Origin: Candidatus Aenigmatarchaeota archaeon
GTDB lineage: Archaea > Aenigmatarchaeota > Aenigmatarchaeia > PWEA01 > JACQIF01
Direction: 5' to 3'
DNA: 64,000 bases
NCBI GenBank assembly: GCA_016432325.1
Contig: CP066684.1
Location: 785,090-849,089, forward strand
Shown here: one piece after another, positions 652 through 52,222 of the stretch
Layout of the letters: every line of letters begins with the position of its first letter
How positions within the stretch are numbered: the first letter of the stretch is position 1
Program-made: the position numbers and the translations under genes
The notes under the pieces: model-generated
Told to the model about the DNA's origin: nothing
The model's database searches: none
What the model saw: the letters and a program-made list of their open reading frames with translations, nothing else

Positions 652-716
652 CTGTTTCATCGTGTCGCCGCAAGGGCGACTGGTGAAACAACAGTTTCAC
701 GCGATCGTTTCACTCC

Positions 717-14594: not shown

Positions 14595-15668
14595 TCAGGC
14601 CGTCATAACGTATAGCTCGTCTGCGCTGTACGCACGGTCGAATATCCTCACTTCGTCCACGAGCCCCTGATAGTTGTTGCCGTAGCCGCTGGCTACCTGC
14701 CAGAAGTTGTCCGACGGCGTCAGCACGCGCGGGTCGTTTACAGTGGCGATGAGAACGCCGTCGTAGTAGTATTTGCTTCTGGGGTTTGTCGTGTTGTCGT
14801 AACTGTAGACCAGATGGTGCCACGTTCCGCGCGCGTCAGAGACGTTTGCGCTTGCGCTCGGCCATCCGGCGCCTCCCCAGTAGAACGCCCACGCCAGGCT
14901 CGTCGCCGGCGCTGTCTGGTTGGACCATCCCATGGCGAACTCGAGCCTCGACGCCTGCGACGGGCCTACGACAACCCATCCCCGCGCCTGGGCCGGATGC
15001 GTGTTGGTTGTGATGTTTGACGGATTTGCCCACGCCTCGACGGTGAAGCGGTCGAATGTGCCGAGCTTGATTGTCATGTTGACGCCGTCTACAGGCGCGC
15101 CGTCTGTGTTCGTGAAACGGAGGGCCGAGCCGAACTTGCCGGTCGTCCGATTAGGAGAGCCGATGAGAGCGCCGTCGCGGCCGTTGCCGCTCGAGTCGCG
15201 CACGACAGTTCCGGAACCTTCCTCGAATCTGAGGTCCTGATAGGCGCCGTCTGCCGTGTCGAGTTCGATGTTTACGGAATCCGAGAAAGACGGACCCGCT
15301 ATCCTGAGGACGTGTTCCCCGCGGCCGCCCGCCCATAAACCTTTCACTGTTATTCTGCCTGTCGAACCCTCTGCGATATCTCCGGGCATCGAGTAGTTCA
15401 GAATGGTGCCGTCGATTGACACGGCCAGAGAATCTTTCTTGATGGATTGTACTCCTATGTTTCTCACAATGGCGTCTTGCTTTTCAACGCCATCTATCTT
15501 GAACGACGTGCCGAGCGCGCCGACCAGCTCCTGCGAACTCCTCTGCCCGGCTTCCGTTTGCGTTCCTGAAAGACGGCCGGTGAAGACCGTATACGCTCCG
15601 GCGAGCGAGAGGACTATGAGAACGAGAATTATCGAGGCAATTACAGGCGATATCCCCTTCATCACCAC
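14595..15668 (-). CDS. archaeal type IV pilin-like protein with LamG (concanavalin A-like) domain
   Basis: Class III signal peptide (MVMKG|ISPVIASIILVLIV), C-terminal LamG-like region ending in LVDEVRIFDRAYSADEL. Confidence 0.65.
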   Translation of the reverse strand: MVMKGISPVIASIILVLIVLSLAGAYTVFTGRLSGTQTEAGQRSSQELVGALGTSFKIDGVEKQDAIVRNIGVQSIKKDSLAVSIDGTILNYSMPGDIAEGSTGRITVKGLWAGGRGEHVLRIAGPSFSDSVNIELDTADGAYQDLRFEEGSGTVVRDSSGNGRDGALIGSPNRTTGKFGSALRFTNTDGAPVDGVNMTIKLGTFDRFTVEAWANPSNITTNTHPAQARGWVVVGPSQASRLEFAMGWSNQTAPATSLAWAFYWGGAGWPSASANVSDARGTWHHLVYSYDNTTNPRSKYYYDGVLIATVNDPRVLTPSDNFWQVASGYGNNYQGLVDEVRIFDRAYSADELYVMTA

Positions 15669-16198
15669 GGCACCTTCTTCGCCCCTATCTTGTAGCCGAT
15701 TAGGTTCGCCATCAGGTGTATTAGAGGCGTGAACGCGACTATCAAAACCATCGGCACGAAGCGCAGTTCCACGAACGCGTACGAGAGGGCGAACGCGCCC
15801 ACGACGAAATCAAGCTGGTCCAACAGCGGCACGGGCTCGCCGCGCGGGACGCCCCATCGTCTTTTCATGAATGACCCCACGAGGTCTCCTATCATGGCTC
15901 CCGTCGAAATGAGGAAAACGGAGAGCGGGCCCAGTTGCGGAAGCGCAACGCTTTTCGTCGCCGCGTACGCCGTCAGACCGGGCTGGTAGTATATCTCTAT
16001 GAAGCCGACAGCCGTGCCTATGAAGATTCCGAAGAGCGTGCCCTTCCATGTCTTGCCGCTGCCAAAGACTTGCCGCCCCCCGACCTTCGCTCCCATGTCC
16101 AAAGGCGTGCGCCCGCCTGCGAGAGGCGCGAAGGCGTTGGCGAAGTACGCGGGCAGGATGACCCACAGTCCGATTAGCAGGTCTACGGTTAGGGACAT
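15662..16198 (-). CDS. carS: CDP-archaeol synthase (CarS)-like membrane protein
   Basis: 178 aa, 4-5 TM helices, conserved KRRWGV...PLLDQLD region reminiscent of CarS/CdsA-type cytidylyltransferases. Confidence 0.55.
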   Translation of the reverse strand: MSLTVDLLIGLWVILPAYFANAFAPLAGGRTPLDMGAKVGGRQVFGSGKTWKGTLFGIFIGTAVGFIEIYYQPGLTAYAATKSVALPQLGPLSVFLISTGAMIGDLVGSFMKRRWGVPRGEPVPLLDQLDFVVGAFALSYAFVELRFVPMVLIVAFTPLIHLMANLIGYKIGAKKVPW

Positions 16199-16250: not shown

Positions 16251-16721
16251 ATGACAAAGCCGCGGCTTACGATTAGGAATCAGTGGGACGGTGTAGGGAT
16301 TCTCACCTGCGGAGGAAGGGCCGTCGAGGCGTCCCCTGTGGGATTGCCGGTCGAACAGACCATGGGTGAGATGGGGCGTCACAAGGGCGACGCCTATCTT
16401 GTCATCGGTCTCGGCCCTGTGCAAAACCGGTCCCGCGGGAACACGTACATTGTTCAGTATTTCGACGTTCCCAATGTGGAAGAGCTTCCTGTGACAAAAG
16501 GGGAACATGGAGTGCTAATGGCCAGTCTCAGGGAGCTCTGCGTTCCTTACTGCGGCATGTCCGGGCTTCGTGGACCGCGCACGCAGAGGACCATCGACAG
16601 AATGAGAGCCGGAAGGTCAAGAGACGTTGCCGTGGCAAAGCACAAAGAGTTGCGCCGCCTCATCACAGACGTGCACGGCACATCGCGCGGCCGATGGGAC
16701 TACTTCGGTTATAGGCTGTAG
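16251..16721 (+). CDS. hypothetical protein
   Basis: 156 aa; TATA-like GTTATAAATAG about 25 nt upstream; no family recognised. Confidence 0.4.
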   Translation: MTKPRLTIRNQWDGVGILTCGGRAVEASPVGLPVEQTMGEMGRHKGDAYLVIGLGPVQNRSRGNTYIVQYFDVPNVEELPVTKGEHGVLMASLRELCVPYCGMSGLRGPRTQRTIDRMRAGRSRDVAVAKHKELRRLITDVHGTSRGRWDYFGYRL

Positions 16722-44863: not shown

Positions 44864-44973
44864 GGACCCGTAGCTCAGGTGGTTAGAGCGCTGCTCTGAT
44901 AGTTGGACATCGATACGTTGATGTCCTTTTGGTCAGGCAGAGGCCCGGAGTTCAAATCTCCGCGGGTCCACCA
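44864..44973 (+). tRNA. tRNA-Ile (GAU) with canonical 33-nt intron after position 37
   Basis: Hand-folded: acceptor GGACCCG/CGGGUCC, D-arm GCUC-AGGUGGUUA-GAGC, anticodon stem CUGCU/GGCAG, loop CUGAUA|intron|A, T-arm CGGAG-UUCAAAU-CUCCG, encoded CCA; TATA (TTTTTATA) about 25 nt upstream. Confidence 0.75.
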
Positions 44974-44990
44974 CAAATTTCAAGGCAAGG

Positions 44991-45055
44991 ATTTTCGAAC
45001 AAAGTTCGAAAACTTCGAACCGCTGTTCGAAGACAGTTGAAACGCGAAGCGTTTC
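44991..45055 (+). promoter_or_regulatory. TTCGAA motif cluster plus GAAACGC-GAA-GCGTTTC hairpin upstream of small membrane protein gene
   Basis: TTTTCGAACA, GTTCGAAAA, CTTCGAAC, GCTGTTCGAA (44991-45031) then palindrome GAAACGCGAAGCGTTTC (45039-45055); TATA-like CTTTTATA follows. Confidence 0.3.
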
Positions 45056-45471: not shown

Positions 45472-45697
45472 CGCCTGGGTGGCTCAGTGGTAGCGCCTTT
45501 TTGCTGCGGCAAAAACCCGCGGGAATGCACGGAACAACGTTCCGGCACATCGGGAGCGCACTCCCGAATGAAATCCGCGCCGCGCGCCTAAAGAGCACCA
45601 GACTCATAATCTGGGGGTCGTGAGTTCGAAGCCTTACTGCCCGAGAGGGCGGTAAGTGAAACGCGCAGCGTTTCAGGAGTTACTCACCCCAGGCACC
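45472..45697 (+). tRNA. elongator tRNA-Met (CAU) with two introns (D-arm approx 100 nt, T-loop 59/60 approx 51 nt)
   Basis: Hand-folded: acceptor GCCUGGG/CCCAGGC, D-stem GCUC...GAGC separated by a highly structured insert, anticodon arm CCAGA-CUCAUAA-UCUGG, T-stem GUGAG/CUCAC with UUCGAA plus insert, encoded CCA; TATA (TTTATATC) about 27 nt upstream. Confidence 0.65.
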
Positions 45698-45733
45698 ATA
45701 ATTCGATACAAGAACGTTGTATATTGTCGAGAA

Positions 45734-46420: not shown

Positions 46421-46569
46421 ATCACCTGCCGGACAAGACGCATGAAACCCGGGGGCTTCACGGATGCCTCGACACTCGCGTAGAAACAAAAATTCATGTA
46501 TTTAACCTTTCTTAGGCCGACAGTCGACGAATTTTTAGCTTAAATAAAGTTGCGCAGAAGACGACTCGT

Positions 46570-46645
46570 GCCGCCATAGCTCAGCTAGTAGAGCACCTGA
46601 CTTGTAATCAGGGGGTCGAGGGGGCAGAGCCCTCTGGCGGCTCCA
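46570..46645 (+). tRNA. tRNA-Thr (UGU), intronless, with non-canonical D-loop and T-loop
   Basis: Hand-folded: perfect cloverleaf with acceptor GCCGCCA/UGGCGGC, anticodon loop CUUGUAA, encoded CCA, TATA about 27 nt upstream; D-loop AGCUAGUA lacks GG, T-loop GGCAGAG replaces the usual UUCRAAU. Confidence 0.55.
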
Positions 46646-48202: not shown

Positions 48203-48907
48203 TCATTCCAACACGTACTCCATTCGCTGGACGTCTTTCCCCTTGTTGGCAAGGCCGACTATGCGCACGCGGCCCAATTCTTGGAGGTTAGAGACGTGCG
48301 TGCCTCCGCACGGGCAGAGATCATAATCCTTTATCCTGATGAGGCGCAGTTGTTGGACGTTCTTCGGGATGCGTTCTATGTCGGTGCGCTGCGCGTTCGT
48401 GGCGTTCAGCGCGTCCTCCCGCGACATGTACTCTATGGAGACGGGCCTCTTTTCAGATATTAGCGCGTTCGCTCGCTGTTCGATGCTCCGCAGGTCATCG
48501 TCCGAGAAGTGCGCCGGTGCGAAATCTATGCGCGAGCGCTCCGGATGTATCTGGTTCCCCACCGTGGACGCCTTGAAGAGTTCCAGCACGACGGCCGAGA
48601 CGAGATGCTGAGAAGTGTGCATCCTCATGTTCGCGTGGCGGCGCGTCCAGTCGACGACGCAGTGCACGGAAACGCCTGCGGGAACGTTCTTGTCGACGAA
48701 GTGTTTGACTTGCCCTTTGTCTTTACGCGCATCCGTTACGTTCGCGGCGCCGCCATCGAATGTCATGGTCCCTGTGTCGTGTTCCTGCCCGCCGCCCGTG
48801 GGGTAGAACACTGTGCGGTCCAGAACGACCCAGTTCGGTCCGCTCTCAATTACGCGCGCGTCGCACTCGCGCAGATAGCAGTCGTTGAGATAGAGAAGGT
48901 CGGTCAT
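48203..48907 (-). CDS. alaX: alanyl-tRNA editing protein AlaX
   Basis: HTSQH and CPCGGTH zinc-binding motifs of the AlaRS editing domain; track ORF trimmed to MTDLLYL. Confidence 0.75.
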   Translation of the reverse strand: MTDLLYLNDCYLRECDARVIESGPNWVVLDRTVFYPTGGGQEHDTGTMTFDGGAANVTDARKDKGQVKHFVDKNVPAGVSVHCVVDWTRRHANMRMHTSQHLVSAVVLELFKASTVGNQIHPERSRIDFAPAHFSDDDLRSIEQRANALISEKRPVSIEYMSREDALNATNAQRTDIERIPKNVQQLRLIRIKDYDLCPCGGTHVSNLQELGRVRIVGLANKGKDVQRMEYVLE

Positions 48908-48911
48908 CGGA

Positions 48912-49163
48912 TCACCTGTATATGTTTTTCCTGTGCCCAAGAGAAAGGATAAAGACGACCTTCTCTTTATTGTCAAGCTTTGCCAATACGCGGTAGTCGC
49001 CGACGCGCAGTTTATAATCCACCCTGCCTGTAAGCCGTTCCAGATAGTGCGCCGGGCGGGAGGCGGCCCTTTCCAGACTGTCCAGGATGCGTTTGGCCGT
49101 GGCGTTGTCCAGTTTCCGCAGTTCGGAGACCGCCTCGTCGGAGAACACAAGCCTGAAGGTCAC
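48912..49163 (-). CDS. relE: RelE/ParE-family type II toxin
   Basis: 83 aa; C-terminal YRVLAKLDNKEKVVFILSLGHRKNIY typical of RelE/ParE. Confidence 0.7.
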   Translation of the reverse strand: MTFRLVFSDEAVSELRKLDNATAKRILDSLERAASRPAHYLERLTGRVDYKLRVGDYRVLAKLDNKEKVVFILSLGHRKNIYR

Positions 49164-49402
49164 CGTATCCCCAGCTCTTCTCTAATCTCCCGCAGCGTGC
49201 GGGTCCTTCCCCTCTTCACGTCTGCCAGGGCTCTTAGAAGAGAGGCTTTGAACTCGTCGGTATACTCTCCCTCATCGTCTCCCGAAGGAACGAGTTCCAG
49301 AAGAGCGTTCAGCAGCTCGTCATACGTTTCGCCCTCAGTTTCCTTGAGCCGCGCGAGCCTCCCCCTCGTCTCCCTGCTTATCTGTATTGTGGTGTAGGAC
49401 AT
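49160..49402 (-). CDS. type II antitoxin
   Basis: 80 aa; stop overlaps toxin GTG start (GTGA); acidic C-terminal half. Confidence 0.55.
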   Translation of the reverse strand: MSYTTIQISRETRGRLARLKETEGETYDELLNALLELVPSGDDEGEYTDEFKASLLRALADVKRGRTRTLREIREELGIR

Positions 49403-49488
49403 ATTATGGATATATTATACAACAACTATATAAAGGTTGCATTCGGAAGAACGCCCCCTTTAAATAACTTTCCACGCAAACGCTACCT

Positions 49489-49740
49489 ATGATGGCCGCG
49501 CAGGAGTATCGAAAGTTGTCGTTCGGAGCAGACGACTTGACCAAGCCGCCGAAGAAAGGGCTGTACGTCCCTCAGTTCAAGGTCGACGTTCCCCAAGGAT
49601 ATAGGTTTTACACCGGCGAGCCGCTCGTTTCACGGGTCGACCGCTGGGCCACTCTTGACATGAACGCCATGTTGGCCGAGGAGTACGGCGGCGTCTGGCG
49701 CCAGCCGAATATGGACGAGTGGGCCGCGTGGTCCGGGTAA
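49489..49740 (+). CDS. hypothetical protein
   Basis: 83 aa; no family recognised. Confidence 0.35.
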   Translation: MMAAQEYRKLSFGADDLTKPPKKGLYVPQFKVDVPQGYRFYTGEPLVSRVDRWATLDMNAMLAEEYGGVWRQPNMDEWAAWSG

Positions 49741-50065: not shown

Positions 50066-52222
50066 CTAAGACGGTCCCAAGGACTTCTGTCCGTCTTCCA
50101 ACCCCTCCTTCGCATGCAGCTGCTTGTGAACGTCCGCGGCAAGCTTTTCACCGAGCAACGGTTTCAACTTTTCCAGAGGCGCGTCGCGTATTTTTGTCAG
50201 CGATGTCAGCCCGGCATTGTGCAGCGTCCTCGCACGCACGCGTCCTATCCCTTTTAGAGCGACGAGCGCAACGAGTTCTTCCTTGATGCCGTACTTTACG
50301 CGCACGCGGGCCTTGCGCAGTTCGCGCATCTTTTCCTTAAGTCCTGTCAGCAGAGCCATCTCTTCCGCGGCGTACAGCAACCAGTCCGCGGTTTCGAGGC
50401 GCGCACGCAGCTCGCCTGGCGTTGTGCCATACTCTTCAAGAAGCCAGTCTTCGCCCGCTTCGGACGCCCATGCGTCCAGAACAATCGCGCACTTCATTGC
50501 GTTGACGAAGTCGTCATACTCGCTGTCCCACGGTTCCGGCGCGCTCACCCCGCGCGATTCGGCTTCGGCCAATAGCGCCGCAACCTCGCCGTCCTTCGCG
50601 CGTCCCGGAGCCATCTCCCGCGTGTTGGCTATCATGAGAAGGCTGTCAAACACACTCGTGCACTTTTCCAATGTAGTCATCATCGAGAACGCGGTCTCGG
50701 GGTCGATGTAGAGCTGCGACACGCGCGTTCCAATCCGCGTGGCTTCGAGCCCTCCGTCACGTGTTATGAATCCCTGCTCTTCGAGTCTCGACAAGACGCG
50801 TTCGACTGTCGCACGTATCTTCTCCAATTCCTTATACTGGTGCGCGAAAAACGTTCCCTGCAAGAATTTCCACAGCCCCTCCTCTGAAGCGACGTGGGAC
50901 GCGATGAGCGCGAGCGCATGCATCCTCAGTATCGGCTCGACCCCGAGCTTCGAGAGTATCTCTTCTGGCTTTCCTTGTATGTACCTCTTGACAAGGTCGT
51001 GCGCTTCCAACTCCGAGCGCGCGAGAAGAACGGCTTCGCCTTCATTGTCGTACTTCGGACGCCCTGCCCGGCCGGCCATCTGGTGGTATTCGAGAACGGG
51101 AATGAAGACAGAACCGTACATGGGATGGAAGCGCTTGACGTCGCGTATGACGACGCGATATGCCGGGAGATTCAGGCCTGCCGCAAGTGTCGGCGTGGCC
51201 GCGATGACCTTGATTGCGTTCTCCTTGAAGGCGCGCTCGACAAGCGAACGCTGCGGCCCCGCGAGACCGGCGTGATGGAAGGCCGTGCCTTTGCGGATGC
51301 AGCGAGCGAGGCGCTCGCACTGTTTTGTCGGGCGCGAAGTGACGTTGAGAATGTCTTCTGCAAGCTTGGCGAGTTTCGCGCGTTCGTCGGCCTTCAACTT
51401 CGTTCCTATCGATTCTCCGCACTTCTCTGCGACGGATTCGGCGTTGCGCCTCGAGGACGCGAAGACGAGCGCCTGCTTGCCTTCGGCGACCGTGCGGTCG
51501 CAGATTTCCAATTCCACATTCTCTTCGTTCGCGAGTTTGAAGTCACGGTCGCTTTCGGGGAAGCGTACGGCTTCGCCGTCGTAAACGCCTTTGTAGAGGG
51601 CGACAGGCCTGTAGTCAGACGTTACGAGCTCTGCGTTGAGCCACGATGCCAGTTCTTTTGCGTTTGCTATTGTCGCGGACAGACCGATTATCTGCGGTTT
51701 GTATTCGCGCAGGCGCGTCAGCACGACTTCCAGCGTGGGTCCGCGCGTTTCATCATTCAACAGGTGCACTTCGTCTGCAACGACAAGACCGACGTTGAGT
51801 ATCCATGCAGGACTGTGGCGCAGAAGCGAGTCCAGCTTCTCGGAAGTGGCGACAATAAGGTCGTACGAGCCGAGCCAGTCGTCTGCGGTGTCATAGTCGC
51901 CCGCCGAGACGGCGACGCGCACGCCGAGCTTTTCATACTTCCTGAAGTCCTCGAGCTTTTCAGAAGCGAGCGCGCGGAGCGGAACGATGTAAAGGACTTT
52001 TCGCTTCTTTTCCAATATCATCTTGAGGAACGCGAGTTCCGCGATGAGCGTCTTGCCCGAAGCCGTCGGAGACGCTACAACAAGGTTCTTGCCCTGCAGA
52101 AGGCCTGCTTCTATCGCAAGTTTCTGCGGAGGATTGAGACTCGTGACGCCTCCCAGTACGAGCGTGCTGCGGGCTTCCTTGGGCAGTTCGAGAGAGTCGA
52201 CGTGCATGGTTTGCGTACGCAC
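50066..52222 (-). CDS. hel308: Hel308/Ski2-like ATP-dependent DNA helicase
   Basis: Walker A (ASPTASGKT), DEVH box, C-terminal helix-hairpin-helix-like domain; 718 aa. Confidence 0.85.
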   Translation of the reverse strand: MRTQTMHVDSLELPKEARSTLVLGGVTSLNPPQKLAIEAGLLQGKNLVVASPTASGKTLIAELAFLKMILEKKRKVLYIVPLRALASEKLEDFRKYEKLGVRVAVSAGDYDTADDWLGSYDLIVATSEKLDSLLRHSPAWILNVGLVVADEVHLLNDETRGPTLEVVLTRLREYKPQIIGLSATIANAKELASWLNAELVTSDYRPVALYKGVYDGEAVRFPESDRDFKLANEENVELEICDRTVAEGKQALVFASSRRNAESVAEKCGESIGTKLKADERAKLAKLAEDILNVTSRPTKQCERLARCIRKGTAFHHAGLAGPQRSLVERAFKENAIKVIAATPTLAAGLNLPAYRVVIRDVKRFHPMYGSVFIPVLEYHQMAGRAGRPKYDNEGEAVLLARSELEAHDLVKRYIQGKPEEILSKLGVEPILRMHALALIASHVASEEGLWKFLQGTFFAHQYKELEKIRATVERVLSRLEEQGFITRDGGLEATRIGTRVSQLYIDPETAFSMMTTLEKCTSVFDSLLMIANTREMAPGRAKDGEVAALLAEAESRGVSAPEPWDSEYDDFVNAMKCAIVLDAWASEAGEDWLLEEYGTTPGELRARLETADWLLYAAEEMALLTGLKEKMRELRKARVRVKYGIKEELVALVALKGIGRVRARTLHNAGLTSLTKIRDAPLEKLKPLLGEKLAADVHKQLHAKEGLEDGQKSLGPS

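Follow-up and report, generated by a model that had tools for sequence, protein, structure and literature searches.

In cytoplasmic tRNAs, textbooks treat G18, T54, Psi55 and A58 as invariant, and the best-conserved modifications of tRNA are made at these nucleotides. Natural tRNAs that depart from parts of this set are on record. Staphylococcal non-proteinogenic tRNA-Gly, which serves cell-wall synthesis, carries U18U19 or C18U19 and is without U55 and C56 (PMC4574755). tRNA-Pyl and animal mitochondrial tRNAs function without G18/G19 and T-Psi-C (PMC7609411). Eukaryotic initiator tRNA and tRNA-Ala(AGC) are working tRNAs in which A54-A58 is found together with canonical G18 and U55, such unusual 54-58 pairs being reported absent from bacterial and archaeal tRNAs (PMC7566577). 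Outside tRNA, T-loops follow a YGNRA consensus whose position-2 G is hydrogen-bonded, at its sugar edge, to the base that intercalates between T-loop positions 4 and 5, nearly always an adenosine; tRNAs differ in having U at position 2, and a GGAAG loop of the rRNA type also supports function (bioRxiv 10.1101/2022.12.26.521914). A18, G54, G55 and G58 are not mentioned in T-loop and elbow reviews (PMC7912444, PMC4810234). No description of a natural A18/G55 or GGCRG tRNA was found in the full-text literature searched, and the only full-text match for a tRNA D-loop with A18/G19/C56 was a paper on synthetic tRNA.

Here we describe a tRNA-Thr(UGU) gene in a 64,000-nt stretch of DNA from a DPANN archaeon, Candidatus Aenigmatarchaeota archaeon (MAG; GCA_016432325.1, contig CP066684.1, positions 785,090 to 849,089; hereafter the window). 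Compared with a canonical elongator tRNA or archaeal tRNA-Thr (RF00005), the tRNA has the same 7/4/5/5-bp stems and 5-nt variable loop and shares U8, A14, G15-C48, A21, U33, G19-C56, G53-C61, Thr identity and CCA, but has A, G, G and G in place of G18, U54, U55 and A58, respectively, and G for Y60. Staphylococcal tRNA-Gly is likewise a natural cytoplasmic tRNA with non-canonical D- and T-loops but it loses G19-C56 (PMC4574755), whereas the class to which tRNA-Thr belongs keeps this pair and carries a compensating A18/G55 combination; no link to a cell-wall enzyme was seen here. Unlike tRNA-Pyl and mitochondrial tRNAs, with their short D-loops, altered stems or missing arms, tRNA-Thr has fully standard dimensions. 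It shares a purine-purine replacement at 54-58 with the A54-A58 tRNAs, although the bases are G-G and not A-A. The generic T-loop of riboswitches, RNase P RNA and rRNA is similar in its position-2 G and, given the fold predicted for tRNA-Thr, would be similar in its intercalating adenosine, in a G...G 1-5 pair of the GGAAG kind and in a position 3 engaged in a long-range Watson-Crick pair (bioRxiv 10.1101/2022.12.26.521914). The difference is that the motif here lies in a tRNA T-arm, where UUCRA/G18 is otherwise almost invariant.

Results

The tRNA-Thr gene, its parts and the box upstream of it are located in the window as follows.

46540..46548, plus strand: TATA-like box TTAAATAAA, centre ~26 nt 5' of tRNA position 1
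46570..46645, plus strand: tRNA-Thr(UGU) gene, 76 nt, intronless, discriminator U73 (Rfam RF00005; sequence reading)
46583..46590, plus strand: D-loop AGCUAGUA, A14 G15 C16 U17 A18 G19 U20 A21 (sequence reading)
46603..46605, plus strand: anticodon UGU (threonine; for codons ACA/ACG), the loop CUUGUAA containing U33 and A37
46618..46634, plus strand: T-arm, stem GAGGG/CCCUC and loop GGCAGAG (sequence reading)
46643-46645, plus strand: encoded CCA (sequence reading)

The complete tRNA is GCCGCCA UA GCUC AGCUAGUA GAGC A CCUGA CUUGUAA UCAGG GGGUC GAGGG GGCAGAG CCCUC UGGCGGC U CCA, to which standard tRNA numbering from 1 to 76 applies with zero gaps. The stems, of 7/4/5/5 bp, are Watson-Crick at all 21 pairs, the anticodon loop is 7 nt long and contains U33, and U8, A14, G15/C48, A21, G46, U33 and A37 are all canonical. 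G1-C72, C2-G71, G35, U36 and U73 are present, a set which we take to be that of archaeal Thr identity (ThrRS substrates). An initial sequence-only reading had described an intronless tRNA-Thr with a perfect cloverleaf, an encoded CCA and a TATA box ~27 nt upstream, a description borne out here, with the box centred ~26 nt upstream. The spacing of TTAAATAAA matches the geometry of a TTTTTATA box at the neighbouring tRNA-Ile, and TTAAATAAA is a putative promoter of tRNA-Thr. The covariance-model score, which that reading had proposed as a check, is far from low: Rfam RF00005 returns 56.2 bits (E 1.9e-9) over the full model (1-71), against a gathering score of 29 bits and a yardstick of 57.0 bits for the intron-bearing canonical tRNA-Ile(GAU) situated 1.6 kb upstream (44864-44973). 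ARAGORN calls no tRNA in the window, tRNA-Thr included; reverting G54 to U and G58 to A in silico, while leaving A18 and G55 untouched, makes it call this gene. In 60 window ORFs, ACA accounts for 23% of Thr codons (11.8 per 1000), a frequency at which an ACA decoder is needed.

The elbow is where the tRNA departs from the canonical form. The near-universal G18 is replaced by A (46587), and the T-loop at 46623-46629 reads G54 G55 C56 A57 G58 A59 G60, with G in place of U54, U55 and A58 and a purine in place of the usual Y60. A18 and G55 thereby stand where the canonical G18-U/Psi55 contact would be made, and G54 and G58 where the U(T)54-A58 reverse-Hoogsteen pair would form. G19 (46588), C56 (46625) and a purine at 57 are unchanged, such that the nucleotides of the G19-C56 pair are present. 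A tRNA without U54, U55 and A58 cannot carry m5U/m1Psi54, Psi55 or m1A58. The letters of both loops as initially read (GGCAGAG and AGCUAGUA) were correct on re-reading. The claim built on them, that the elbow nucleotides are lost on both sides, needs qualification: both loops are indeed changed and G18, U54, U55 and A58 are replaced, but G19, C56 and R57 are present and the change is a replacement with G19-C56 kept, not a loss. Both other tRNAs of the cluster, tRNA-Ile and tRNA(CAU), have canonical elbows, and the alteration is thus specific to tRNA-Thr and not genome-wide. Folding the tRNA sequence in isolation by minimum free energy favours a slipped T hairpin of 7 bp, which was set aside because the Saccharibacteria version described below does not conserve it and does not permit the slip.

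The second of these neighbours is split by two introns, one of 100 nt within the D-arm and another of 51 nt that follows T-loop position 60.

45473-45698, plus strand: tRNA(CAU), two introns (exons 45473-45492, 45593-45631 and 45683-45698)

Splicing in silico yields a perfect 75-nt cloverleaf with a GG / UUCGAAG canonical elbow and an encoded CCA. Neither ARAGORN nor Rfam, at its gathering score, detects the gene, which may specify either Met or Ile2. Four TTCGAA motifs lie just 3' of tRNA-Ile (window 44990-45055), and an 18-nt near-palindrome, TGAAACGCG[A/C]AGCGTTTC, occurs twice, the second copy within tRNA(CAU) intron 2 (45657-45674).

An identical tRNA-Thr is found in four Logan assemblies (SRR12113430, SRR12113385, SRR12113383 and SRR12113384), a recurrence in separate assemblies which rules out assembly error as the source of the unusual sequence. 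The Logan contigs encoding the adjacent 271-aa protein are 99.97-100% identical to the window and represent one strain, the longest (L001) extending into an archaeal Hel308 helicase gene. Three of the four contigs covering the region begin exactly at window position 45496, inside tRNA(CAU) intron 1, a shared start that may reflect a repeat or a coverage break. The sole database relative of the 271-aa ORF is itself (HYS81_05240, 100% identical), and it provided no synteny route to other genomes. With regard to mobile elements, no second copy of either tRNA half, as expected of an att-site or partial duplication, occurs within the window, and PHROGs and Pfam searches of 10 neighbouring ORFs revealed nothing viral. 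An AlaX-type trans-editing protein (tRNA_SAD domain) is encoded 1.6 kb from tRNA-Thr on the minus strand (48203-48940), followed by a ParE toxin / DUF7557 pair, AlaX and the pair together occupying window 48203-49740, and by an adjoining Hel308 gene (50066-52222).

Orthologues of the gene were reached through relatives of the window AlaX protein (66% and 64% identity), which led to two Logan contigs, L177 and L178. Local order is kept in both, AlaX being followed by a protein of ~292 aa of unknown function, and in L177 Hel308 and a NUDIX gene precede AlaX. A HicAB pair lies downstream of AlaX in the same neighbourhood of L177. Splitting by three introns hid the genes from Rfam and from ARAGORN, the latter also run with its intron option, and neither detected a tRNA on these contigs. 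With the window tRNA as query, short-word BLAST recovered tRNA-Thr pieces, in order, on both.

L177 9989-10298, minus strand: orthologous tRNA-Thr(UGU), three introns (short-word BLAST, sequence reading)
L178 3435-3670, minus strand: orthologous tRNA-Thr(UGU), three introns (short-word BLAST, sequence reading)

The introns interrupt the D-arm, position 37/38 and the T-loop, with splice sites placed by homology and complementarity alone, and the 37/38 insertions of the two genes are homologous to each other. Spliced, the L178 tRNA reads GCCACCA UA GCUC AGCUAGUA GAGC G CCUGC CUUGUAA GCAGG AGGUC GAGGG GGCAGAG CCCUC UGGUGGC U CCA. Its elbow, A18 with GGCAGAG, is that of the window tRNA, and stem differences between the two are compensatory, G-C to A-U at 4-69 and A-U to C-G at 31-39. 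Spliced L177 has an intermediate elbow, consisting of a UGCAAAU T-loop, with G55 but U54 and A58, and a D-loop containing AGG; further compensatory pairs are found at 7-66 and 27-43. TTAAATAAA is located ~30 nt upstream, in the equivalent place, in the window, L177 and L178 genes. These comparisons identify tRNA-Thr as an archaeal gene that is inherited vertically and whose structure is under selection. With its orthologues split by introns, the intron-free state of the window copy most likely reflects intron loss. The tRNA-Ile and tRNA(CAU) genes of L177 are also in at least three pieces (at ~16397-16703 and ~15596-15785). No tRNA-Thr pieces were found at the more distant AlaX loci L179-L187.

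The same elbow recurs outside this lineage. A scan for A18-bearing Thr tRNAs (pattern TAGCTCAGNNAGTAGAGCNNNNNNCTNGTAA) across the 185,579 species representatives of GTDB returned 110 loci, ~90 of them in Saccharibacteria species representatives. Saccharibacteria tRNA-Thr(UGU) has the D-loop AGYUAGUA and the T-arm GUCGG-GGCAGAG-CCGAC, an identical loop on a different stem, and occurs with an encoded CCA and three compensatory acceptor-stem variants; the cultivated Nanosyncoccus nanoralicus (L043) is among the bacteria with the module. Three Phycisphaerales loci combine A18 with GGCGGAA or GGCGGUA. Most other A18 Thr tRNAs have U54 G55 C56 loops, as in Thr(CGU) of Saccharibacteria and Yanofskybacteria, Thr(UGU) of a Woesearchaeota MAG and several Bacillota, Deltaproteobacteria and Bacteroidota, and only three of the scanned A18 Thr loci combine A18 with UUC. 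ARAGORN calls just 3 of the ~95 GGCRG-type tRNAs in this set (L005-L114, mostly Saccharibacteria tRNA-Thr(UGU)), and annotations based on it would report the ACA decoder absent from these genomes. A tblastn search of the loci for an EF-Tu gene beside the Saccharibacteria tRNA-Thr, the thrU-tufB-like context, gave no match and is uninformative. A tRNA-Thr(CGU)-like gene with A18 (AGCGAGUA) in a Caldarchaeales MAG (L036 ~655-685, minus strand) has no normal 5-bp T-stem in its 3' part (CGGGCGAGAUGCGGAACUGCCCCCGGGGCU), which may indicate an insertion or an aberrant T-arm.

A reverse scan was made on the T-loop (...GGGCRGANC), with position 18 free, any anticodon allowed and the Saccharibacteria gene left out. 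It yielded 43 metagenome loci, and a similar scan in which the Saccharibacteria exclusion was dropped gave 19 IMG/VR viral contigs. Although selected on the T-loop only, 39/43 metagenome and 19/19 viral loci have A before G19; the four exceptions have 9-nt D-loops ending AGGUA, with an AG still inside. Most metagenome matches sit in dense arrays of 10-24 tRNA genes, several of these contigs also appearing in IMG/VR as viral genomes 47-231 kb in length, and a few are in ordinary cellular contexts (tRNA-His in L118, tRNA-Thr in L125). The pooled class comprises 57 distinct sequences with 13 anticodons. An apparent Thr specificity of the module was discarded as an ascertainment artefact, the genome scan having demanded a Thr anticodon and the anticodon-free scan having returned these 13. 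Stem cells of the pooled class are paired in 1190/1197 cases (99.4%), and every position of the acceptor and anticodon stems shows 4-6 pair types, as would be expected of constrained, working-looking tRNAs. All scans fixed the D-arm as GCUC...GUAGAGC and the spread of the class is thus underestimated. Among cultured phages the best BLAST matches (PhiPA3, Hena1, RunningBrook) are canonical tRNAs. In Erwinia phage Hena1 (L189 139-196) an annotated tRNA-sup(tca) directly follows a canonical tRNA-Thr.

Positions 18 and 55 vary together. In the 434 ARAGORN-called tRNAs of all fetched loci, U55 loops were paired with GG D-loops in 324, and 61 loops had G55 (UGCRA or GGCRG), all but one of them with A18-G19; the UGCRA loops of the metagenome loci were picked by no pattern. 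The module G52 G53 GGCRGAR C61 C62 is conserved across the 57 distinct tRNAs, but the patterns themselves required G19, C56, G54, G55, G58 and, in part, A59, and the invariance of these positions therefore cannot be counted as independent support, that of G54/G58 having been set by two search patterns. Two features that no pattern imposed also mark the class: G52-C62 is present in 57/57 members compared with 72% of canonical tRNAs at the same loci, and position 60 is a purine in 54/57 compared with a pyrimidine in 223/227 canonical tRNAs. A59 is found in 55/57. A simple isosteric swap explains neither the purine at position 60 nor the fixed G52-C62.

The phage-like arrays (L115-L157, e.g. L121, L127, L146 and L156) hold further classes of elbow covariation: A19/U56 (AGCUGAUA with UUUGAAU), C19/G56 (..GCCA with UUGGAAU) and A54...U58 (AUCGUAC). 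Many U54 G55 C56 loops with A18 occur in the same arrays. The A19/U56 and C19/G56 Watson-Crick swaps imply that the elbow there evolves by compensating changes.

Discussion

The window tRNA-Thr gene is real and probably functional. Our favoured explanation, which we hold with considerable though not full confidence, is that it specifies a vertically inherited, expressed elongator tRNA-Thr(UGU), presumed to be aminoacylated, with an alternative set of mutually compensating elbow nucleotides. It would be the only tRNA-Thr(UGU) of the genome. A co-evolved non-canonical elbow was one of the two interpretations offered by the sequence-only reading, and it is this one that gains support, from the L178 orthologue, from recurrence of the elbow on other stems and from the co-occurrence of A18 and G55. 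The other, a specialised or pseudo tRNA, fared poorly: nothing was found in support of a specialised tRNA, and the orthologues, their compensatory stem changes and the conserved TATA box oppose a pseudo tRNA.

Structurally, the unchanged G19-C56 and purine 57 would preserve the partner-stacking face of the elbow. Inside it, the G18/Psi55 contact would be replaced by A18/G55, the arrangement of nearly all non-tRNA T-loops, and the U54-A58 reverse-Hoogsteen pair by G54-G58, as in the rRNA T-loop GGAAG. On this three-dimensional scheme the loop would keep the T-loop fold, with A18 stacked between A57 and G58, G54-G58 closing the motif and G19-C56 forming the outer face. Non-tRNA T-loops use a position-2 G with an adenosine, which makes A18/G55 a candidate for the generic T-loop solution; judged by sequence alone, G55 with A18 fits that description. 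By analogy, GGAAG provides a natural precedent for G54...G58. With these substitutes the tRNA should still fold into an L and decode ACA/ACG.

The class-specific positions raise a different structural possibility. The tRNA could be functional with a loop that is not a T-loop. A G54-R60 mismatch would then close a pentaloop of the GNRNA type made up of G55-C56-R57-G58-A59, and the corner would be held differently or more loosely than usual. Loops of the boxB type are the basis for reading GCRGA as GNRNA, a reading that the sequence alone permits, and a plain 54-58 / 18-55 swap leaves R60 (54/57), A59 (55/57) and G52-C62 (57/57) unexplained. A pentaloop would, however, let position 56 vary freely, whereas the strict A18-G55 coupling and the retained G19 and C56, the latter even where C56 was not imposed, are what a T-loop/D-loop interaction predicts. 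A GGAAG T-loop is, moreover, documented. We regard the pentaloop as improbable, although it is the rival that survives best.

Function outside or beside translation, as an amino-acid donor in a non-ribosomal reaction, a regulator or a variant evading a tRNA-directed nuclease, with a canonical tRNA-Thr(UGU) elsewhere in the genome decoding, is less probable again. In its favour, phage tRNAs are known to evade host tRNA nucleases, and the module turns up often in phage tRNA arrays; the window gene also has, at a distance of 1.6-3 kb, an AlaX-type trans-editing gene and a ParE/antitoxin pair. Staphylococcal non-proteinogenic tRNA-Gly, without G18, G19, U55 and C56, sets a precedent (PMC4574755), but G19-C56 is lost in the staphylococcal tRNAs and kept in this class, and neither a Fem-type transferase nor a viral gene was found among the 10 neighbours by Pfam and PHROGs. 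In genomes of this size (~875 kb, of which the window covers 64 kb), a single gene for each anticodon is the norm. The unusual Saccharibacteria gene is often <8 kb from tRNA-Tyr(GUA), tRNA-Thr(GGU) or tRNA-Trp(CCA), a proximity which suggests an ordinary chromosomal tRNA gene.

Recent acquisition from a CPR bacterium or a virus would explain both the intronless state and the Saccharibacteria-like loop, since introns are present in both neighbouring tRNA genes but not in tRNA-Thr, the Saccharibacteria gene is matched exactly in the T-loop and almost exactly in the D-loop, and overall identity is ~80%. Yet syntenic archaeal relatives hold the gene in place with three archaeal-style introns, including homologous intron sequences, the archaeal TATA box is conserved and many stem pairs are unlike those of the bacterial versions, all of which leave transfer very unlikely. 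A decaying or non-functional tRNA-like pseudogene, which the four altered near-universal nucleotides and the missing ARAGORN call might suggest, can be dismissed almost entirely in view of the perfect stems, the high covariance-model score, the conserved promoter box, the L178 orthologue with the same elbow and compensatory stem changes, and the occurrence of the same module in hundreds of independent genes.

Returning to the favoured explanation, an elongator with a compensated elbow, the available sequences suggest stepwise compensatory evolution, from the canonical elbow through A18/G55, as in L177 and Woesearchaeota, to A18/G54 G55/G58, as in L178 and the window. The enrichment in phage, CPR and DPANN fits fast-evolving lineages of small population size and equally fits escape from elbow-directed enzymes. 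A broader proposal, which we advance only tentatively and consider possible but not the likelier outcome, is that A18 with G54 G55 C56 R57 G58 A59 R60 and G52-C62 marks out a separate and recurrent structural class, its members being fully functional tRNAs in Archaea, Bacteria and phages, translating without the 'universal' G18, T54, Psi55 and (m1)A58. Such a class would have arisen repeatedly via a G55/A18 intermediate and would persist by altering recognition of the elbow by modification enzymes, RNase P, the ribosome or tRNA-directed nucleases. If true, this would account for the abundance of the class in phage tRNA arrays and among the episymbiotic CPR and DPANN lineages.

An apparently essential tRNA thus appears to do without all four of the textbook nucleotides, and the covariation rule recurs across domains and phages, providing a natural test of what the elbow actually requires. 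ARAGORN-based annotation misses such tRNAs, which raises the number of apparently 'missing tRNA-Thr' cases within completeness estimates for CPR and DPANN genomes. The cultivated Saccharibacteria with the module are tractable for structural work and tRNA-seq. If the altered elbow shifts recognition by nucleases or processing enzymes, it would also bear on phage-host conflicts over tRNA.
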